Source of the DNA: an uncultured bacterium
GTDB lineage: Bacteria > AUK180
Reading direction: 5' to 3'
DNA length: 40,351 nt
Assembly: GCA_937863565.1 (NCBI GenBank)
Contig: CALMGJ010000027.1
Span: 1-40,351 of the forward strand
Shown: piece after piece, positions 22,820 to 34,033 of the stretch
Numbering within the stretch: position 1 is the first letter of the stretch
Layout of the letters: the number at the start of each line of letters is the position of its first letter
The notes under the pieces: generated by a model
Database searches by the model: none
The model's input: the letters and a program-made list of their open reading frames with translations, nothing else
Told to the model about the DNA's origin: nothing
Program-made: the position numbers and the translations under genes

Positions 22820-24392
22820 GTTTTTATCCCTTATCCTTATTTTCCTCGCCTCTGCGGTCATTTCCGGGGATACTTATTTTGTGATCGACAACAATACCAA
22901 TACTGTGCTGAACAGGTATTTTGCCGCTATTTACAAGAATCCGGCCGCCCATTTCAATCATCCGCACGTCACTTATTCGCTTACCTTCAAAGATGCCCTG
23001 GAGCTGGACAATATCGGCTTTATCATTCCGCTCGGTAACCTTTATATCGGATTGGGATCCTTCAATAAGACTCCGTATTACGAGAATGCCGTCAATCTGA
23101 AATACGGGTTCGGCGATTATCTTAATATCGGAATGACCTATTTTGGCGTGATCGATACCTCCACTTCTTCGCCTCCAATCGAGAGTATGGTAAATATCGG
23201 GGTTACTATTTACCCTTTTACCCGCGAATTTAAAAAGGGAGGGCAACTGACCAATTTCTGCTTATCTTTCTACTATGACGGACTTGTCAGGAGCGAAGAC
23301 CTGAAATCTTTATTCCCCCGCGTTCTCGGTATAGGCGCCGGTTTCTTTTATAAGGAATCCCTGAAGATCTTTTTTAATTCCGAAAAAACGGAAGGTGATG
23401 ATCCGGAACTCGGCATAGGATTCGCTGCTAAACTGAGGGAAGGGTTCAACCTCTACTTCGGAGGCAAATTGAACGGAGTATCCGTCGGATGCGAATACAT
23501 CTACGGAGATGTGAGTTTAATGGCGGGTTTCAACCGGACCGACGGAAGAAATACCGCAAGGGTAAATATAAATTTCATACCGGGCAACACTCATAATCTT
23601 CTCGCCCGTGAACTTCTTAGAAGCGGCATTGAGGCTTACAAGAATATGGATTATGAAAGGGCGATAGAAATATTCAATCAGGTGCTGGGGATAAACCCAG
23701 GCAATGATGAAGCTAAGCAGTTCATTAACCTTTCAAAAGAGAGGATTCAACGTGAAGCGGATCTGATCGTCAATAAAAAGATGCTTAACATCGTTCAGTT
23801 GATAAGGGATAAGAAGGTGGAAGAAGCTAAACAGGAATTCGACGAATTAAAAAAATACCATCCCGGATATGAGAGCAAGTGGAGTCAACTCCTTGAAAAA
23901 TTCCCGAAGGAAGCGAAACACATCCGGGAGAAACTCGATGAGGCGCCTAAGGAGAACGGAGCGGCCTTTACAAGGAAACTTGCCGAAGTGAACAAACTTA
24001 TTGCCGAAAAGGATCTTCCGGAAGCAAAGAGGTCCTTCTCAATATTGAAGGATATCCCGAAATCCGCTGAAAGAGAATATCAGAAAACGAAGGACGATCT
24101 TGAAAAAGCGATCGCCGAGAGGGTCTCCATTCTAGTAAATGGCGTACAGAAAGGCATTAATGATGATAATCTTACGTTTTTTGAAGAGATACTCGCTCTT
24201 GACCGCGAGAATGTATTTGCAAAAAATTCAATAATTTCGTATTATTTAAATAAGGGCGAGGTTTTTTACAGGAACCAGGATTTTGAAAATGCCCTGCGGA
24301 TGTGGCAGAAAGTACTTGAATATGAAACGTCGAACAGCAAAGCTTTACAGTATATTGAGACGACAAAGAAAAAAATGGAGCAACGGAAGTGA
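22806..24392 (+). CDS. Exported protein: N-terminal PorV-like beta-barrel plus C-terminal TPR/helical region
   Basis: Signal peptide; AIYKNPA motif (cf. A..WNPA of PorV/FadL-like barrels), beta-strand pattern to ~aa 260; TPRs GIEAY...YERAIEIFNQVL.INP and KGEVFYRNQDFENALRMWQKVL. Confidence 0.7.
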   Translation: MSKNRFLSLILIFLASAVISGDTYFVIDNNTNTVLNRYFAAIYKNPAAHFNHPHVTYSLTFKDALELDNIGFIIPLGNLYIGLGSFNKTPYYENAVNLKYGFGDYLNIGMTYFGVIDTSTSSPPIESMVNIGVTIYPFTREFKKGGQLTNFCLSFYYDGLVRSEDLKSLFPRVLGIGAGFFYKESLKIFFNSEKTEGDDPELGIGFAAKLREGFNLYFGGKLNGVSVGCEYIYGDVSLMAGFNRTDGRNTARVNINFIPGNTHNLLARELLRSGIEAYKNMDYERAIEIFNQVLGINPGNDEAKQFINLSKERIQREADLIVNKKMLNIVQLIRDKKVEEAKQEFDELKKYHPGYESKWSQLLEKFPKEAKHIREKLDEAPKENGAAFTRKLAEVNKLIAEKDLPEAKRSFSILKDIPKSAEREYQKTKDDLEKAIAERVSILVNGVQKGINDDNLTFFEEILALDRENVFAKNSIISYYLNKGEVFYRNQDFENALRMWQKVLEYETSNSKALQYIETTKKKMEQRK

Positions 24393-25891
24393 AATTTTTT
24401 AGTTTTAGGTGGAAACTCCTTTCCGTAATAGTCTCTGTCCTTATTCTGGCGCTTATTCTATTTTCCCTACTTATTAATATTTATGAGAAAAATCTCCTTT
24501 TAAAACTTTCATCGGAAAAGGGGAAGATCGTGAATGATACGATATTCAACAATCTTGAGATCCTGATGGATACGGGAAGCAAACTCCAGATCTACGACCT
24601 TCTTGAAAAGCATTTTACGGACGAGATCGTTTCAGTTTCAATAATAGACTTGGGTACGGGAAAAATTGTATACTCCTCTGTAAGGGAAAATGAGAACGGC
24701 ATGATTCCAGGTGAGATGCTTGAGAGGATTAGAGAGATCAAGGTCAGACTTCCGACCATCTCAATAACTGCAAATAAATCAAGATTCTTCTATTCTTACA
24801 TTGGGAAGAACTTCTTCGACCTGGAAGGGGATTTCTATTCGGAGATCATATATTCCGAGAAGAAGATCTATGATTCCATTGCCGGTCAGACAAAGCAGAT
24901 ATTTCTGATCTCTTTTGTCATCCTGGTGATCGGTTTCCTGGCAAGTTTCTTTTTCGGGATGATCATTAATAAACCTGTGGAAACACTGATCCTGGGCACA
25001 AAAGAGATCGGTAACGGCAATCTCGACTACAATATTCCGCTCAGGACCTCCGATGAGTTCGGGAAACTCGCGGAATCATTCAATAGGATGTCCCAGAACC
25101 TGAAATTCGCTCAAAAACAGGTGATCGTGAAAGAATTGATGGAAAGGGATATCAAACTCGCTCAGGATATTCAGAATTCGCTTTTTACGAAGGAACTTCC
25201 CAAAAGCGAGTTCCTTGATATCACAACGCATTACGAGTTCGCCCGGGTCATCGGTGGAGATTATTATGAAGTGCTCACGAAAGACTCGACCACGGCCGTG
25301 CTCGTTGCGGACGTTTCCGGAAAGGGAATACCCGGTTCGCTTATAATGGTCATGCTGCGAAGTCTGATAAAGTCGCTTTTCTATCAGGAAAACGATCTTA
25401 AAGAATTGATGTTGAAGGTGAACCACCTCCTCATGAGGGATATCACTCCGGGGAAATTCGTAACCCTGCTCATGGCTCAGATCGCTGAAAAAACGGGCCA
25501 GGTCAGCATCCTGAACGCGGGGCATTTACCTCTGTACAAATACGATGCTGCCCAGAAAAAAGTAGTTGAGATCAATCCCGGCGGTTTGGGTCTGGGCCTT
25601 AATGACGGGATCATCTTCAAAGAGAACATGAAGCTCGCACAGGACGAATTGAGAGAAGGGGATATCTACCTCTTTTGCACTGACGGCGTAACTGAGGCCA
25701 TGAACCCCAATAAAGAGCAGTTCGGCGAGGAGCGGCTGAAGCAGGCGATAATCGATAATCATGACGGTACTTCCGCCGATATTCTGGAAGCGGTAAAAAG
25801 GGAAGTGAGGAATTTCCTGATCGGCGAAGAATTGCACGACGATTTCACTATGGTCGTCCTAAAAAAGAAAAAAGGAGGTTTGAATGGCTAA
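24389..25891 (+). CDS. Membrane HAMP-domain PP2C phosphatase (RsbU/SpoIIE family)
   Basis: Two TMs with periplasmic domain; HAMP DEFGKLAESFNRM; A.DIQ, IGGDYYE, VADVSGKG, NAGH, CTDGVTEA, HDDFT. Confidence 0.93.
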   Translation: MKFFSFRWKLLSVIVSVLILALILFSLLINIYEKNLLLKLSSEKGKIVNDTIFNNLEILMDTGSKLQIYDLLEKHFTDEIVSVSIIDLGTGKIVYSSVRENENGMIPGEMLERIREIKVRLPTISITANKSRFFYSYIGKNFFDLEGDFYSEIIYSEKKIYDSIAGQTKQIFLISFVILVIGFLASFFFGMIINKPVETLILGTKEIGNGNLDYNIPLRTSDEFGKLAESFNRMSQNLKFAQKQVIVKELMERDIKLAQDIQNSLFTKELPKSEFLDITTHYEFARVIGGDYYEVLTKDSTTAVLVADVSGKGIPGSLIMVMLRSLIKSLFYQENDLKELMLKVNHLLMRDITPGKFVTLLMAQIAEKTGQVSILNAGHLPLYKYDAAQKKVVEINPGGLGLGLNDGIIFKENMKLAQDELREGDIYLFCTDGVTEAMNPNKEQFGEERLKQAIIDNHDGTSADILEAVKREVRNFLIGEELHDDFTMVVLKKKKGGLNG

Positions 25892-26225
25892 TTTAGACAT
25901 TAGACCTGAAGATAAGAACGGCGTAATGATACTGCATTTAAAAGGATTTCTTGATGCGTATACCTTCCAGGATTTCGAGAACAGACTTTCCGAGCTGATC
26001 GGAGAGAACAAGGTGAAGATAGTCGTTGCCATGGATGAACTCGATTATATCTCTTCTGCCGGCCTCGGTGTTTTCATGAGCAAGATAGGAGAGATAAGAA
26101 GCCGCGGCGGAGATATTAAATTGACACAGCTCAATACAAAAGTGTTCAAGGTCTTCGAGCTTCTGGGATTTACGAAATTATTCCAGACATTCGATAATAT
26201 TCAGGAAGCATTAGAAAGTTTCTGA
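25884..26225 (+). CDS. STAS anti-sigma-factor antagonist (RsbV/SpoIIAA-like)
   Basis: LKGFLDA, LDYISSAGLG with phospho-acceptor Ser, VFELLGF; AGGAGG SD. Confidence 0.93.
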   Translation: MANLDIRPEDKNGVMILHLKGFLDAYTFQDFENRLSELIGENKVKIVVAMDELDYISSAGLGVFMSKIGEIRSRGGDIKLTQLNTKVFKVFELLGFTKLFQTFDNIQEALESF

Positions 26226-28181: not shown

Positions 28182-28255
28182 CGGGGAGTAGCGCAGCCGG
28201 CTAGCGCGCATGGTTTGGGACCATGAGGCCGCGGGTTCGAGTCCCGCTTCCCCGA
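28182..28255 (+). tRNA. tRNA-Pro(TGG), CCA not encoded
   Basis: Acceptor CGGGGAG/TTCCCCG, anticodon stem CATGG/CCATG with loop TT-TGG-GA, T-arm GCGGG-TTCGAGT-CCCGC. Confidence 0.96.
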
Positions 28256-28367
28256 TATTCTGTTCACCACCCTCCGTATCCCGCACATCCCTTGCCGCCT
28301 TTGAAAAGGATCTTATTTTGATTTTCAGACCGGCAGATGCGGACAGATACAACGACAATAGCATTGC

Positions 28368-28440
28368 GCACCCTTAGCTTAACGGATAGAGCACCGGACT
28401 TCGACTCCGCAGGTTGCAGGTTCAAATCCTGCAGGGTGCG
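28368..28440 (+). tRNA. tRNA-Arg(TCG), CCA not encoded
   Basis: Acceptor GCACCCT/AGGGTGC, D-loop GGATA, anticodon loop CT-TCG-AC, T-arm GCAGG-TTCAAAT-CCTGC; C27:C43 mismatch. Confidence 0.93.
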
Positions 28441-28510
28441 CTTATGCTTTGATTTTTTTCCCTTGTTATCAGTGAAAATAGATTAAACCGGTGAATCCCT
28501 GATTACGCTT

Positions 28511-30511
28511 TCAGCTCAGCGGAAAGAATTCCATCTTTTTCTGTTCGATCGCTTTCAGAACTATATCCCGATTCTCATGATCATTGAAGTGATCATTGCT
28601 TTGAGACCTGATGTTCTTAAAAGCCCTTCTGTATGATTCCGTATCGGGTTTCGGCTCATTGCCGCTCAATATGTCCACGCGAATAAGTCTGCCCTTATCG
28701 AAAAGAAGCGAATTCAAAATGCCTTTCCCGTTCTTGAAAAGAGCATATCCCGTAAGCCCCTTGCTTTTGATCCCGTCCTCGATCTCGGTAATCATCTCCT
28801 CGTATGCCGCAATAAATTTTTCCTTTCCCGGATTGCTCCCGTTGAAATTAAAGATGAATTCCTTTATCGCATTTACGGGATCTTCCCAGAAGCCTTTGAA
28901 AAAAGCCTCAAAACTCCTCCTGTTCGCTTCCTTGCAGGGAGCGAGGCACTCCGTTTTCAAATAGTGGGTGCAAAACAGGGAATCCTCGATGGGATGCTCG
29001 ATGCAGAAAGGGAATCCCATCTTCTTGAGAAGATAATCCATGGCTTCGGCCTTCAGCGGAGTGGCCGAAAAAGGTCCGAGAAAAGCTCCCTCGCCCCCGC
29101 AGGGATGTTCGCACAGTACGGCTGTCCTTATTGAGTTCCTTCCGATCGCTTTAAGGAAAAAATAATCTCTTGGCAGATGGTTCACTTTTCTGAAAAGGGC
29201 TTTCTCACTGCGATACCTATTGAATTCATTGATCATATTCTGAACCGAATCTTCACAAATAGAATATTCAATGTCGCAAGTCTTCTCAACCAGAGTTTTA
29301 ATGAACGGGTATTTATCAACTTTCTTCAGCATTTCAAGGAGCATTTTCTTAACATTTTCCGTCTTTGTCAAAAAGAGAACACGTTTCTCTTTGTTCTTGA
29401 AGACGAGAAGCCCGGGCTTTTTCGGAAGGGCATTCAATTTCTCGGGTTTCACTTTAAGATCGACTATAGTCCCTGAATCCCCTTTAAGATCAGTGCTTTT
29501 AAAAAGAAAAATATGTCCTTCAGTACTTTTAAGGCGCAGATCCTTAAAGTTGAAATGGCATTTAAATGCTTTCTGCTTCAAAGCATTAAGATCGAGCTTC
29601 TCGAGCTCCTCTTTGGTAAGAACACCCTCGAATCGGATCTTCCCGTAACTCTGAGGTTTGATAAGAGAAAGAATGCGCTTCACTTCGCGCTCGTTCTTTT
29701 CAGGCTCATTTTCAAAAAGCTGTATTCTGAATTCGAACATATCCCTGGCGGGAAGCTCGATGAAATCGGTTTTAAAGGATGATCTGTCGCCGACCTGCAC
29801 CCGTAAAAAACCCTTTGGTTCATTGATCTCGGAGAATGTTACGCGTTCGGAGGAACCCGGAAAATGAAACCGTCCCATCTTCTGATATTTATGTATGTGG
29901 CCTGCAGCGATGTAATCGAATGCCTTAAATTCCGGAAGATGCGAAACAACATCCGGGAATTTCCTGAACGCAAAGTTCGTGGGCCCTACTTTGGCTTTGT
30001 GAACGAGCTGATGCATCATGAGAATATTGAAATCGGCTCTTTCGGTGAACCCCGCGCTTTTCAGGCTCTCCTCGAAGACGGGGTCTATATTGCTCTTCTT
30101 GGAGTTGATATAGGGTATCCCGGTTATGGAAACGGTCTTTCCCTTCACTTCAAACCTGAAGGTGCCCGGTTCGTTGAATACGACGATATTCTTGAACGTG
30201 GACGCCACTTCGTTCAAAAGAAGCGACCTTTCGTGATTTCCGGGTACAACGAATATCCGTATTCCTTTCCCGTCAATGTATTTAAGGGGCTTCAGAGCCA
30301 TTTGAAGGATATAAAGAGGGGGCGTTTCATTCTCAAAAAGATCGCCCGTATGTAGAATAAAATCGATGTCTTTTATGTTCTGAAGGATGTAGTTCACAAC
30401 TCTGAAGTAGTTCGAAAGGAAATCAAAACCCCTGAAGGCAGTGTAGTCCTTCGGCGGTTTTACCGGAAAATGATCGCCAAGGTGATTGTCGCTGAAATGG
30501 ATAAAAAGCAT
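28511..30511 (-). CDS. SbcD/Mre11-like metallophosphoesterase nuclease fused to degenerate UvrC-like (GIY-YIG + 4-Cys) module
   Basis: SDNHLG, TGDLF, PGNHE, MMH, AAGHIH, FPGSSER..FSE...KGF; then LPKKPG..., FLGPF, C-x10-C-x7-C-x3-C. Confidence 0.85.
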   Translation of the reverse strand: MLFIHFSDNHLGDHFPVKPPKDYTAFRGFDFLSNYFRVVNYILQNIKDIDFILHTGDLFENETPPLYILQMALKPLKYIDGKGIRIFVVPGNHERSLLLNEVASTFKNIVVFNEPGTFRFEVKGKTVSITGIPYINSKKSNIDPVFEESLKSAGFTERADFNILMMHQLVHKAKVGPTNFAFRKFPDVVSHLPEFKAFDYIAAGHIHKYQKMGRFHFPGSSERVTFSEINEPKGFLRVQVGDRSSFKTDFIELPARDMFEFRIQLFENEPEKNEREVKRILSLIKPQSYGKIRFEGVLTKEELEKLDLNALKQKAFKCHFNFKDLRLKSTEGHIFLFKSTDLKGDSGTIVDLKVKPEKLNALPKKPGLLVFKNKEKRVLFLTKTENVKKMLLEMLKKVDKYPFIKTLVEKTCDIEYSICEDSVQNMINEFNRYRSEKALFRKVNHLPRDYFFLKAIGRNSIRTAVLCEHPCGGEGAFLGPFSATPLKAEAMDYLLKKMGFPFCIEHPIEDSLFCTHYLKTECLAPCKEANRRSFEAFFKGFWEDPVNAIKEFIFNFNGSNPGKEKFIAAYEEMITEIEDGIKSKGLTGYALFKNGKGILNSLLFDKGRLIRVDILSGNEPKPDTESYRRAFKNIRSQSNDHFNDHENRDIVLKAIEQKKMEFFPLS

Positions 30512-31005
30512 CAGAATTTCTTTTCCAGATACATTTTCAGAAGGCCGCGTTCGCTTTTTACGCTCACTTCAAGGTAATGCGCATCAAAAAAAGCATCGAA
30601 AGCATTGTATAACCAGAACAAAAGCACTCCGGAGATCAGGTATTGATGAAGAAAGTATTTATTCACATATTCATCGTAAAGGGGCTCAGAGCCTTCCGGT
30701 CCGTTCTTGGAGAAATAATCCTCATAGGTTTCATAAGCCTTCTGGACGGTACCGTAACTTTTAAAAGTCCCGTAGAGCATTCCGCCTGCGAAGGAAAGGA
30801 ATACGGCGGATTTAATATATTTCCCGTTGGAAAACTGTCCGAAACCCGGAACGATCGCCGATTGCACGAGCCGGAGAACCGGTTTACTTACAAGCTCTTT
30901 TCCCGTTGCTCCTGAAGGAGATAGAAAGAGAAGTATTGCGGCAATAACGCTCAGTCCGCCGAATTGAATTTTGCGAATATTTTTTCCTGAAGGAGTTTTT
31001 TCCAT
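30511..31005 (-). CDS. DUF5683-like exported/membrane protein
   Basis: SAIVPGFGQFSNGKYIK and WLYNAFDAFFDAH motifs; start uncertain (55-nt overlap with upstream gene). Confidence 0.75.
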   Translation of the reverse strand: MEKTPSGKNIRKIQFGGLSVIAAILLFLSPSGATGKELVSKPVLRLVQSAIVPGFGQFSNGKYIKSAVFLSFAGGMLYGTFKSYGTVQKAYETYEDYFSKNGPEGSEPLYDEYVNKYFLHQYLISGVLLFWLYNAFDAFFDAHYLEVSVKSERGLLKMYLEKKF

Positions 31006-31673
31006 TCTTCGTTGATGAACTCTACTTTGGGAACATATCTTCCCTCAACTTTCACGGAAGGTTCCCCTATATTGTTCCCTCTCTGGCTCATGAATATAGG
31101 TATGCTTTTAATCCAGTATTCCCCATTCAGTTCAACCTCGGCCCATCCCTTTAAAGCACCGCTTTCATATTTTTTTATCTTGATCTCCGTGATAGAAGGC
31201 AGCGGCCCTTTTCCGGCAACGGACTTTTTCTGGATGCCATCTCCGAGGAAGTTCAGGAATTTGATCTCATTGGCCCAGAGGAAATAATACTTGCTTTCGC
31301 CGGAAACGGAATAGGGGAGAACGATCCTTCCGTCCTCGAATGTTATCCCTTTTACCAGCACGGCGCCGTCCAGTTCGACCGAGTATTCTTCCGCGCTCTG
31401 GTTCACAGCGGTGATCCTGGTAGCATATGCCTTGGCGGGAACGGCCGTTTTCGGGGTGTCTGCAGGAGCTTTATCCGTAACCGTAGTTGAAGGGGCTTCT
31501 TCGCGTATTTCCTCGCCAGGTCCGGAGGCTTGAGGCTCGGCAGTCTCTTTCCCGGGCGTTTCAAGGGTTTTTTCCGCTTCGAATTTCCTTTCTACTTTTT
31601 CAACGTTCTCCGCCTTTTTACATGAGAAGAACGCGAGCATCAATACGAGAGCTACAATGATCGTCTTTTTCAT
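30951..31673 (-). CDS. Lipoprotein with P/A/T/E-rich linker and tandem SpoVG-like domains
   Basis: MKKTIIVALVLMLAFFSC lipobox; C-terminal ITEIKI..ALKGWAEVELNGEYWIKSI.I......IGEPS.K.EG.Y....FINEEWKKLLQEKIF follows the SpoVG pattern. Confidence 0.72.
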   Translation of the reverse strand: MKKTIIVALVLMLAFFSCKKAENVEKVERKFEAEKTLETPGKETAEPQASGPGEEIREEAPSTTVTDKAPADTPKTAVPAKAYATRITAVNQSAEEYSVELDGAVLVKGITFEDGRIVLPYSVSGESKYYFLWANEIKFLNFLGDGIQKKSVAGKGPLPSITEIKIKKYESGALKGWAEVELNGEYWIKSIPIFMSQRGNNIGEPSVKVEGRYVPKVEFINEEWKKLLQEKIFAKFNSAD

Positions 31674-31676
31674 CTT

Positions 31677-32327
31677 CTAACCTTCCTTAAAATTTTCTTT
31701 CCATATATTGAAAAAATGCGCAGTATGTTTCTGCGGTATCAGGATCCTCTCCACGGTCCCGTATATCTTTACATGATATCCGCGGTCGAATATCTCAAAA
31801 ACAGGCTTGGCGTTCTTGTCGAGGAAAGAAAGTTCCTTTCCGTTATTGAAGAACATGAACTCGCCGCTTTGAGACATCCGCTCCATCTCATTCTCCACAA
31901 GACCCTGTATCTCCTTTTTTATATAGAATTTTTCGGAGAACCGGACATTGATAACGGTGAAGTCCTGGCTTTCAACGAACGCTTCTTCTATATTGAAACG
32001 GCTGATATTGCCTTTATTGAGAAGCACGCGCTTCCAGGCAAGCTCTTCAAGGTTATTCGTTCCTCCAAGAGAGAAGAGATTAACTCCGGGTTCTGTCAGA
32101 TTGTGGGCATGTTTTTCGTGGAGTACGGCGATGAATTTCGTGAACCGCAGCTCTGAAGACGGCTTTACGGCAAATTCACCCTTTTTTATCTTCTGGGAGT
32201 ATTTCAAAAGAGCGTTCTTGTATCCGAGTTGCTCGGTCATATATAAAAAAAGGATCAGTACGGAATCAAAGGCGGTTTTATTTAAAAATTCATTCAAGTA
32301 ATGAAGCGCAAGGAAATCCTCGCTCAT
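31677..32327 (-). CDS. Hypothetical protein
   Basis: 216-aa ORF translationally coupled to pilB (TAATG overlap); no motif recognised. Confidence 0.75.
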   Translation of the reverse strand: MSEDFLALHYLNEFLNKTAFDSVLILFLYMTEQLGYKNALLKYSQKIKKGEFAVKPSSELRFTKFIAVLHEKHAHNLTEPGVNLFSLGGTNNLEELAWKRVLLNKGNISRFNIEEAFVESQDFTVINVRFSEKFYIKKEIQGLVENEMERMSQSGEFMFFNNGKELSFLDKNAKPVFEIFDRGYHVKIYGTVERILIPQKHTAHFFNIWKENFKEG

Positions 32328-34033
32328 TAATTGCTATCCGCGGCGGTAGTCCTGAATATCTCCTCGACTGTAGTCGTTCCCTTGAGGGCCTTTATTACGG
32401 CAGACTCGCGCAGCGTTTTCATTCCCTGTTTCCTGGCCAGGGCTTTAATGTCGTCCACAGATGCTCTTTTTACGATAAGGGACCGCATCTCCTCGGTGAC
32501 GAAAAGCACTTCGTAAACGGCGGTTCTTCCTTTATAACCGGTATTGTTGCATTTAGAGCAGCCTTTGCCTTTATAGAAATCAGTCGTAGAGACCTTATCC
32601 TTGGGAATGCCGAGGTCCATCTTCGTCTCCGGAGTGACATCCTCGTCAACGATCTTGCAATTCGAACAGACCTTTCTTACGAGTCTCTGTGCAATGATCA
32701 TCACGAGGGAGCTTGCTATATTGAAAGGTTCGATGCCCATATTGCCGAGTCTTGCGATCGTGTCCGGGGCTGAGTTCGTATGAAGCGTTGCAAAGACAAG
32801 GTGGCCGGTTTGAGCGGCCTTAACGGCGATCTCTCCGGTCTCGAAATCTCTAACTTCACCTATCATGACTATGTCGGGATCAGCTCTGAGGAACGATTTC
32901 AACGCGGAAGCAAAGGTAAGCCCTACTTCCGGTTTTGCCTGGACCTGATTCAATCCCTCGATATCGAATTCGACAGGGTCCTCCGCTGTCATGATGTTCA
33001 CGTCCTCGGTATTCTTCAATTTCAAGGACGTGGACAGTGTCCAGGTCTTGCCCGATCCTGTTGGTCCCGTTATCAGGATCATTCCCCACGGCGAATCAAT
33101 GCCCTTCGTAAAGCGCTCGAGTTGAGCCTGCTCGAAACCGAGCATATCGAGAGTAACTTCTCCGGAACCTTTGTCCAGAATTCTTATGACCACTTTTTCC
33201 CCCCATACGCACGGTATTATGGCAACTCTGAGGTCTATGTTCCTGTTATCATAGGTCACCCTCGCCTTGCCGTCCTGAGGCACTCTTTTCTCAGCAATAT
33301 TAAGATGCGAAATGATCTTGATCCTCGAAACAAGTCCGGCGTTGATTTGCCTGGGCAGCTTGTCGGCGGTATGAAGGACGCCGTCCATCCTGTATCTTAA
33401 CCTCGTGTACTTTTCATAGGGTTCTATATGGATATCCGAGGCCTTCTTCCTGATGCCGTCAAGGATGATCTGATTAACTAGTTTGACGAGAGGTTTATCA
33501 TCGGCAGCGACGCCGGCCACGGCCTCCTCCTCCATCTCGTCGCTTTCCGATACGACATCCATGACCGTTTCCGAAAGGTCTTTAGTCTTATCCTCCAGAT
33601 GCTCTCTTGCCGATTTATAATATTTATCCACGGCAGCCGTAAGGCTCCTTTTCGTTGAGATCGCAGGTTCGATATTAAGGTTTGTGATGAACTTAAGGTC
33701 GTCCAGTATCTTCCTGTCCGTCGGGTCCATCATAGCCACGGTAAGAGTATCTCCGAGCTTCTCTATTGGGATAACGAGATGTTTTTTTGCGACCTCGCCG
33801 GGAATGAGTTTGAGTATCTCCGGGTCCACTTCCCATTCATCGAGGTTCACAGCTATCATTCCGAGCTGTTGCTGCAGGAAGAAGAGGATCCTCTCTTCCG
33901 GAACGAATCCGAGATCGATAAAGATCTGGCCAATTTTACCGCCGTTCTTTTTCTGTTCGTCAAGAGCCTGCTGCAGCTGTTCGGGCGTAAGCAGACCTTC
34001 TCCGATCAGAATCTCGCCGAGTTTCATTTCCAC
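32327..34033 (-). CDS. pilB: Type IV pilus assembly ATPase PilB (GspE family) with MshEN domain
   Basis: KLGEIL...LT.EQL..AL..Q N-terminus; ASDIHIEP, R.DGVL, PQDG, Walker A GPTGSGKT, EDPVE, GEVRD, TGHLVFATLH, tetracysteine zinc motif. Confidence 0.95.
   Translation of the reverse strand: MEMKLGEILIGEGLLTPEQLQQALDEQKKNGGKIGQIFIDLGFVPEERILFFLQQQLGMIAVNLDEWEVDPEILKLIPGEVAKKHLVIPIEKLGDTLTVAMMDPTDRKILDDLKFITNLNIEPAISTKRSLTAAVDKYYKSAREHLEDKTKDLSETVMDVVSESDEMEEEAVAGVAADDKPLVKLVNQIILDGIRKKASDIHIEPYEKYTRLRYRMDGVLHTADKLPRQINAGLVSRIKIISHLNIAEKRVPQDGKARVTYDNRNIDLRVAIIPCVWGEKVVIRILDKGSGEVTLDMLGFEQAQLERFTKGIDSPWGMILITGPTGSGKTWTLSTSLKLKNTEDVNIMTAEDPVEFDIEGLNQVQAKPEVGLTFASALKSFLRADPDIVMIGEVRDFETGEIAVKAAQTGHLVFATLHTNSAPDTIARLGNMGIEPFNIASSLVMIIAQRLVRKVCSNCKIVDEDVTPETKMDLGIPKDKVSTTDFYKGKGCSKCNNTGYKGRTAVYEVLFVTEEMRSLIVKRASVDDIKALARKQGMKTLRESAVIKALKGTTTVEEIFRTTAADSN

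Follow-up and report, generated by a model that had tools for sequence, protein, structure and literature searches.

The window analysed here, i.e., the whole stretch of 40,351 nucleotides of contig CALMGJ010000027.1 from an uncultured bacterium (GTDB lineage Bacteria; AUK180; assembly GCA_937863565.1), carries at 28511..30511, on the (-) strand, a gene whose product of 666 amino acids (aa) unites two modules related to different DNA-processing nucleases. The gene is a single open reading frame (ORF) with an ATG start, zero internal stops and its stop codon at 28511-28513, and all parts of it described below lie on the same (-) strand. An initial annotation, made from the DNA letters only, had proposed that an SbcD/Mre11 nuclease is fused in this gene to a UvrC/Cho-like module, and profiles and structures agree on this composition within one intact 666-aa frame. 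In public records, these proteins are named only 'metallophosphoesterase'. Mre11/SbcD nucleases are normally understood as partners of Rad50/SbcC, and the GIY-YIG domain of UvrC and Cho as the 3' nickase of excision repair. The interpretation favoured here, to which we assign a probability of about 0.6, is that the product is an Mre11-type nuclease, independent of Rad50/SbcC, with an attached Cho-like module, in which, in the copy studied, the GIY-YIG domain has become a pseudo-nuclease, the iron–sulfur (Fe–S) part serves as a scaffold and the Mre11 domain does the cutting.

The N-terminal half (aa 1-300; 29612..30511) is a metallophosphoesterase nuclease of the Mre11/SbcD type with its capping domain. 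Pfam Metallophos matches aa 1-209 with an expectation value (E) of 3.9e-14 and 54 bits, against a cut-off of 21.5, and the best alignment in a phmmer search against PDB joins aa 1-295 to M. jannaschii Mre11 (3auz, E 3e-14), the next matches being P. furiosus Mre11, T. maritima Mre11 and SbcD. Phosphoesterase motifs I-V are complete (D8, H10, G56-D57, G91-N92-H93-E94, H167, G204-H205 and H207), so that the motifs and the capping region predicted initially are all present within aa 1-300. The motif residues, which include the metal-binding D8, H10, D57, N92, H93, H167, H205 and H207, are invariant in 30/30 aligned fused and stand-alone relatives. Moreover, the full-length AlphaFold2 (AF2) model, with a mean predicted local distance difference test score (pLDDT) of 83.7, a predicted template modelling score (pTM) of 0.71 and a pLDDT >90 across most of aa 1-440, finds as top Foldseek matches exclusively the nuclease and capping domains of Mre11/SbcD (E 7e-17 to 1e-15, TMt 0.63-0.74), the best of them being 7dog (E 7e-17, TMt 0.73).

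In its nuclease and capping domains and its full set of phosphoesterase motifs, this half is like the Mre11/SbcD subunit of Mre11-Rad50 (SbcCD) complexes. However, it scores far under the equivalog cut-offs (46.4 bits vs 77.65 for the SbcD model TIGR00619 and 56.3 vs 500 for the Mre11 equivalog), and no Rad50/SbcC partner was found for it; a genome-wide search with the SbcD model likewise recovers the fusion gene at 30.4 bits, below the cut-off. By its sequence scores it is, therefore, an Mre11/SbcD-type nuclease and, under the curated cut-offs, no ortholog of SbcD or of Mre11. Mre11 nucleases possess both 3'-to-5' exonuclease and endonuclease activities, and it is from the intact motifs that the Mre11 domain is taken to be the probable cutter in this protein.

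The two halves are connected by a linker (aa 301-354; 29450..29611) between the capping domain and the GIY-YIG fold, which was delimited from the alignment and from the DSSP assignment of the full-length model (H300-304, H308-314, E317-328, E333-341 and E344-352; pLDDT ~88-96). It comprises two short helices and a three-stranded beta unit, is conserved among the fused relatives and has no family match. The UvrC-like sequence, whose beginning had been placed at ~29440, starts at L359 (~29437). From there on, the protein is collinear over aa 355-585 with the N-terminal part of UvrC and Cho, presenting in succession a UvrC-type GIY-YIG fold whose active site is degenerate (aa 355-445; 29177..29449), a beta-sheet motif together with the first helix of the bundle, which resemble the middle region of UvrC (aa 446-502; 29006..29176), the four-Cys motif of the UvrC/Cho Fe–S site (aa 503-526; 28934..29005) and helices that align to the UvrB-binding (UVR-like) helices of UvrC (aa 527-585; 28757..28933). 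The protein ends in an alpha/beta tail that is specific to the family and of low model confidence (aa 586-666; 28514..28756).

Several independent comparisons converge on this assignment. The best NCBIfam match of the C-terminal half, over aa 353-530, is to models of DEDD-exonuclease/GIY-YIG fusions (E 5.6e-13), and positions 3-172 of the NCBIfam uvrC model match the same residues at E 9e-7, while the score against TIGR00194 (UvrC) is 27.9 bits vs a cut-off of 285.45. When a profile of 13 fused C-terminal halves was aligned by hhalign to a 21-sequence UvrC profile, the probability was 100% (E 2e-39) over 236 columns, corresponding to UvrC columns 6-244; against five DEDD-exonuclease/Cho-like fusions, the alignment extended over 321 columns (E 2e-36; template columns 204-539 of 568). 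A search of 1.84 billion representative proteins with aa 340-666 gave 171 matches at E<=1e-3. Among the best 150 of these 171, four are fused proteins of 666-681 aa and a few are DEDD fusions matching from ~residue 200-270, and nearly all others match at their N-terminus and have the length of UvrC (~600 aa) or of Cho-like proteins (~280-380 aa).

Structure comparison leads to the same result. The AF2 models are confident through ~aa 580, that of aa 340-666 having a mean pLDDT of 77.8 with high values for model residues 11-240, and its nine best Foldseek matches are all the UvrC GIY-YIG domain (TMt 0.79-0.86, root-mean-square deviation (rmsd) 1.3-1.7 Å). VIA, which is independent of Foldseek, returns as best match the UvrC GIY-YIG domain 1ycz (Z 14.3, rmsd 1.5 Å, 88/89 residues), followed by other GIY-YIG nucleases. 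The possibility raised at the outset that the C-terminal half might bear no structural similarity to UvrC is thus dispelled by hhalign, Foldseek and VIA. Pfam GIY-YIG (PF01541) gives no match at E<=1 in this fusion protein and 20.0 and 20.8 bits in two relatives, below the gathering cut-off of 22.6, while three of the four Planctomycetota copies scanned exceed it (28.3-33.9 bits) and the Planctomycetota copy L052 has no match at E<=1e-4. In the middle region, the model places strands at 450-482 and a helix at 485-497, and a beta motif and a bundle helix are described for a model of this region of UvrC (PMC10085695). Since the UvrC middle region is without a solved structure, the assignment of that part rests on sequence profiles.

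The GIY-YIG active site of this copy departs from that of nearly every other protein in the comparison. The residue census was drawn from an alignment of 122 sequences, namely this fusion protein, 12 fused relatives and 109 UvrC/Cho-like proteins. The two Tyr and the Gly at positions 369, 380 and 382, each present in 12/12 fused relatives and 109/109 UvrC/Cho-like proteins, are replaced here by L, F and T; the Arg at position 390 (8/12 and 108/109) is M, and the Asn at position 441 (12/12 and 108/109) is R. The catalytic changes read initially as GVY to GLL, YVG to FLT and Arg to Met reappear in this alignment as L369, F380, T382 and M390. Conversely, K383 (the Lys after YIG), the metal-binding E429, P363, G367, G479-P480, C503, C514, C522 and C526 are kept, and Lys residues flank M390. 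The initial description of an apparently inactive module with an intact UvrC-type Cys motif holds, then, in so far as the catalytic set is lost and the Cys residues are kept, and has to be qualified in that E429 and K383 are retained and that the H/Q position of the Cys motif is occupied by Leu.

Both Tyr, the Gly, the Glu and the Asn are retained in 12/12 fused relatives, which suggests that the family was ancestrally a two-nuclease enzyme, probably, and the canonical catalytic residues are present in each of the six full-length copies from Planctomycetota. As judged from these sequences, the GIY-YIG degeneracy belongs to this lineage alone and not to the whole family. An alternative is that the GIY-YIG domain of this copy is still an active endonuclease with a non-canonical site, making the protein a two-nuclease enzyme like its relatives. 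The retention of E429 and K383 and the Lys residues around M390 would fit such an activity; E429 is the counterpart of E76 in T. maritima UvrC and of E72 in D. radiodurans UvrC, where the E72A substitution abolishes incision (PMC10085695). Moreover, unusual active sites have been documented in other GIY-YIG members (PMC2630997), and the Asn is missing from Slx1 (PMC1564403). However, Tyr, Tyr, Gly, Arg and Asn are all replaced in this copy (by L, F, T, M and R), although Tyr, Tyr, Gly and Asn are kept in at least 108/109 UvrC/Cho-like proteins and in 12/12 fused relatives. In addition, according to PDB titles, the T. maritima domain was mutated to Y19F, Y29F and N88A in order to examine these residues. 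Tyr29, Arg39 and Asn88 were reportedly found by Truglio et al. in 2005 to be required for incision. An active GIY-YIG nuclease in this copy is, on balance, improbable.

The four-Cys motif has followed a different course. Predicted initially as C-x10-C-x7-C-x3-C at 28934-29005, it is found exactly there as C503-x10-C514-x7-C522-x3-C526, and it occurs in 12/12 fused relatives and 107-109/109 UvrC/Cho-like proteins, being invariant in 14/14 fused proteins. In UvrC, the GIY-YIG domain performs the 3' incision and the Cys-rich region bears an Fe–S cluster whose role is still open, with a consensus of CX6-14CX3(H/Q)X3CX3C (PMC10085695). The motif of this copy fits that consensus save for the Leu at the H/Q position, and binding of a cluster is predicted from it. 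Together with the four Cys, the residues P363, G367, E429, G479, P480 and P525 are invariant across the fused family; the conserved G479-P480 corresponds to the FLGPF segment that had been noted as retained.

The two halves of the protein have evolved unequally. In the tree of the C-terminal halves (122 rows), this protein stands within its own family with a support of 97, its end branch measuring 3.35 substitutions per site (median 0.6; nearest relative 1.19), whereas in the tree of the Mre11 halves (30 rows) its end branch is 0.62 (median 0.36; the relative just mentioned 0.56). Likewise, its Mre11 domain is 41-46% identical to those of other genera of the family, which are 40-52% identical among themselves, and its GIY-YIG domain shares 14-24% identity with theirs, as compared to 26-33% among those genera. 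Branch lengths and identities thus describe an Mre11 half under ordinary constraint and a fast-changing Cho-like half that has changed chiefly at catalytic positions while structural landmarks were kept. Each fused group forms a clade in both half-trees. In that of the Mre11 halves, the fused groups meet stand-alone proteins in an unresolved fork; in that of the C-terminal halves, one Cho-like protein joins the Planctomycetota fused set, and the fused C-terminal halves fall in a supported set (96) with six Cho-like proteins of 352-381 aa, apart from the main UvrC group.

This asymmetry bears directly on the main rival explanation, according to which the Cho-like half is a decaying relic on its way to loss and the protein acts as a stand-alone Mre11-like nuclease. 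The very long branch of the C-terminal half (3.35), the loss of five active-site residues and the disappearance of the UvrB-binding motif residues would all be expected of a relic, and stand-alone relatives of the Mre11 half (339-397 aa) evidently work without the module. However, the 312 aa of the C-terminal half remain open, with no stop or frameshift, the four Cys, G479-P480, P363, G367, E429 and P525 are invariant, AF2 folds the half confidently to ~aa 580, and the losses cluster at catalytic positions instead of falling uniformly on structural ones. Decay of the module is, therefore, judged unlikely, although it is the competitor to be taken most seriously.

The collection used for the distribution analysis holds nine species genomes of the source phylum, seven in the source family and two in a sister family. 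The fusion is present in 7/7 species genomes of the source family, with 666 aa in the genome studied and 670-685 aa in 6/6 others, all independent assemblies; these queries matched nothing in the two sister-family genomes (80% and 72% complete). In a wider scan of one genome per species covering 185,579 species, the fusion was found outside the source family in Planctomycetota alone, at ten matching loci that comprise six full fused frames of 686-785 aa, two loci on 1.8-kb contigs and two shorter frames. The shorter frames (L042 and L045; 501 and 522 aa) could be truncated variants, frameshifts or assembly errors, and that of L042 contains the Mre11 half and the beginning of an intact-looking GIY-YIG domain before it ends. 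P0006 (715 aa) is fused as well, and at least seven Planctomycetota sequences have the fusion. In an even sample of 301 Planctomycetota genomes, both halves were matched in the query's own genome only, and this single match indicates that the fusion is rare in that phylum. A search of word-indexed proteins with a profile of the fused family returned the fused proteins P0001, P0002, P0003 and P0006; as it missed known Planctomycetota loci, it gives no measure of family size. The nearest relatives that the Mre11 half has are 339-397-aa stand-alone proteins, among others from Gemmatimonadota and Desulfobacteraceae.

This distribution also decides a technical question, namely whether assembly or gene calling has artificially joined two genes. 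The frame is uninterrupted in 7/7 family genomes from independent assemblies and again in Planctomycetota, the gene order around it is conserved in relatives, and no point in favour of an artefact was found, so that the chimera contemplated in the initial annotation can practically be dismissed.

Regarding possible partners, the source assembly (2.27 Mb, 38 contigs, 95.5% complete) contains a separate, genuine uvrC (404 bits) and uvrB (957 bits) and lacks a second SbcD-like gene. The window is without sbcC, and the sole match of the SbcC model in the genome is SMC (TIGR02168, 834 bits), a result that, at 95.5% completeness, leaves the absence of sbcC unproven. The initial statement that sbcC is missing beside the gene thus extends to the genome search, in which SMC alone was recovered, and the suggested check for separate uvrC and sbcCD genes gave uvrC without sbcC or a further SbcD-like gene. 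Adjacent SbcC is also absent at the four stand-alone Mre11-like loci, out of five scanned, in which the gene and its surroundings could be read (all but L032), and at four scanned loci of Planctomycetota. A separate uvrC is encoded by two Planctomycetota genomes that carry the fusion. In two Planctomycetota genomes, the genuine uvrC genes (G061:C18:23313-24614 and G062:C1:70376-71713) occupy frames of just 461 and 543 aa, which correspond to two segments of the uvrC model (~2-229 and 369-544), its middle apparently missing.

The fusion gene is the final member of a tightly packed run of genes on the same strand (30511-34033). Immediately upstream, domain annotation identifies a DUF5683 membrane-protein gene (30511..31005, (-)) whose TGA stop shares one base with the ATG of the fusion gene, an overlap that makes co-transcription and translational coupling likely; the DUF5683 neighbour is also found in family relatives. 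It is preceded by genes, all on the (-) strand, for a protein of 240 aa whose C-terminal domain is SpoVG (30951-31673), a protein of 216 aa without a family match (31677-32327) and an MshEN-containing type II/IV secretion-type ATPase (32327-34033). On the other side, tRNA-Pro(TGG) and tRNA-Arg(TCG) genes (28182-28441, (+)) run towards the 3' end of the fusion gene, whose stop codon is ~70 bases away, and a HAMP-SpoIIE (PP2C-type) phosphatase gene followed by a STAS-domain gene lies at 24389-26225 (+); these two form a partner-switching regulatory pair and are kept beside the locus in relatives. The gene order of the family is conserved as M18 aminopeptidase, secretion-type ATPase, one or two small genes, DUF5683 and fusion, and the genes on the far side of the fusion in family relatives are the same set as in the window. 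No functional link of the 30511-34033 run to the nuclease is evident, and no conserved repair neighbours, dinB included, were found in the window, in four source-family loci or in four loci of Planctomycetota. Isolated hints of a repair context, not shared between loci, come from L034:11421-12986 and L041:7270-7995, namely an RmuC-family gene close to one Planctomycetota fused gene, with a 303-aa opposite-strand gene in between, and a one-base overlap of one stand-alone Mre11-like relative with the end of an AlkD-type DNA alkylation repair gene.

The genomic context is also relevant to the idea that the fusion is a defence nuclease in an anti-phage or conflict system. Both nuclease types occur in defence systems, and a rare and patchy distribution over two phyla would suit such a role. 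Nevertheless, the gene order is housekeeping-like and conserved in all family genomes, no methylase, ATPase or other defence partner adjoins the gene in the loci of the family or of Planctomycetota (no PADLOC search being made), and the C-terminal half groups with chromosomal Cho-like proteins. A function in defence is consequently regarded as very improbable.

Among known systems, the closest parallel is provided by the DEDD-exonuclease/Cho-like fusions ('Cho+Exo' and 'Cho-like+Exo' of PMC1564403; NCBIfam PRK07883), a resemblance that the initial annotation had pointed out for DnaQ-exonuclease/UvrC-like fusions and that the NCBIfam and hhalign matches bear out. These proteins share with the fusion an N-terminal nuclease, a GIY-YIG domain, a four-Cys motif, helices that align to the UvrB-binding ones and a domain at the C-terminus, but here the N-terminal nuclease is an Mre11/SbcD metallophosphoesterase of unrelated fold and the GIY-YIG active site of this copy is degenerate. 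The fusion resembles UvrC in its GIY-YIG fold, beta motif, Cys-rich Fe–S motif and subsequent helices; unlike UvrC, it ends at aa 666 without an RNase H/EndoV-type 5'-incision domain and without (HhH)2, and has lost catalytic residues. Cho (E. coli YdjQ-type) and short Cho-like proteins likewise correspond to the N-terminal half of UvrC without the 5' nuclease, whereas the fusion adds an N-terminal Mre11 domain and its tail shows no significant homology to theirs by profile. Cho-type proteins fused to a DnaQ-like 3' exonuclease are on record, with digestion from the nick as their proposed role (PMC1564403). In that source, a survey of GIY-YIG proteins from 2006, the words Mre11, SbcD and phosphoesterase do not occur. 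A literature search by titles and the beginnings of abstracts found no Mre11/SbcD–GIY-YIG fusion, the review of the Cho class (Goosen & Moolenaar 2008) lying outside its coverage. The Mre11–Cho-like fusion is a rare and apparently undescribed arrangement.

By analogy, we infer that the family is the Mre11 counterpart of the DnaQ-exonuclease/Cho-like fusions. In the family as a whole, the GIY-YIG domain would introduce a nick on the 3' side of a lesion, from which the fused 3'-to-5' nuclease would then degrade the damaged strand ('nick, then chew back'). In the lineage studied here, the nicking chemistry would have been given up, the GIY-YIG domain persisting as a pseudo-nuclease, and the Cho-like half of this copy would be a folded Fe–S scaffold that places the protein on DNA or on a UvrB–lesion complex. 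Incision would then be carried out by the endonuclease activity of Mre11 itself, or the ordinary UvrC might incise first.

Several observations weigh against the reading of the protein as a Rad50/SbcC-independent Mre11 nuclease with a Cho-like scaffold. The weakest step of the mechanism is the binding of UvrB. The model places helices at 528-543, 545-555 and 563-582, within aa 527-585, and these align up to UvrC profile column 244, yet the conserved residues of the UvrB-binding motif are lost, and Pfam UVR has no match at E<=1 in the fusion protein or in the relatives scanned. A complex prediction for the bundle and Cys region (aa 479-589) and the last 70 residues of the UvrB of this genome scored 0.00 in two runs, which had no controls and in which the UvrB fold was uncertain, and it tells neither in favour of binding nor against it. 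A further point is the tail, for which homology to UvrC or Cho could not be demonstrated. Its pLDDT is 38-62, a profile of the tail only (aa 575-666) reached hhalign probabilities of 0.4-1.4% against UvrC, short Cho-like and DEDD-fusion profiles, and VIA gave weak and mixed matches (Z <=4.5); the 321-column alignment to the DEDD fusions may merely run on through it. As leads only, an Atlas feature search with the tail region points to clusters bearing Cho_C (0.91, 163 shared features) and UvrC_M, and the Atlas structure neighbours of aa 531-666 are clusters of DEDD-exonuclease/Cho-like fusions; in the Atlas labels, PF27096 stands for UvrC_M and PF27115 for Cho_C.

The remaining objections are of a more general kind. 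The canonical Arg is absent in 4/12 fused relatives, namely the near-identical genus-g2 species L025, L026 and L028, with Ala, and L027 of genus g3, with Thr, all of them having an Arg 1-2 positions away, so GIY-YIG activity may already be dispensable or differently built in part of the family. From these substitutions, the source family may be losing GIY-YIG activity stepwise. Moreover, the neighbouring genes (secretion-type ATPase, SpoVG-domain protein, DUF5683 and tRNAs) are uninformative on repair, a Cho-like half drifting to loss would look similar at this sampling depth, and for all members the basis is sequence and predicted structure.

A more far-reaching version of the proposal is that the family represents an undescribed branch of bacterial excision repair, in which a Rad50-independent Mre11 is led to UvrB-marked lesions by a Cho-type Fe–S module and in which the nickase of this lineage has turned into a pseudo-nuclease and the Mre11 guided by nucleotide excision repair (NER) cuts by itself. 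This version is tentative and stands well short of even odds. More broadly, a conserved Mre11–Cho protein without SbcC suggests an unstudied repair route, parallel to the proposed and little-tested role of the DnaQ–Cho fusions of Actinobacteria. The role that UvrC's Cys-rich region plays is named among the unanswered questions in the field (PMC10085695). In this respect, the copy studied here is a natural separation-of-function variant, in which the Fe–S/UvrC-middle scaffold is kept and the GIY-YIG chemistry is gone, and it could thereby help to show a non-catalytic role of the Cys-rich Fe–S region of UvrC. If the proposed branch of excision repair is real, the family would link the toolkits of excision repair and of Mre11 by a direct evolutionary bridge.

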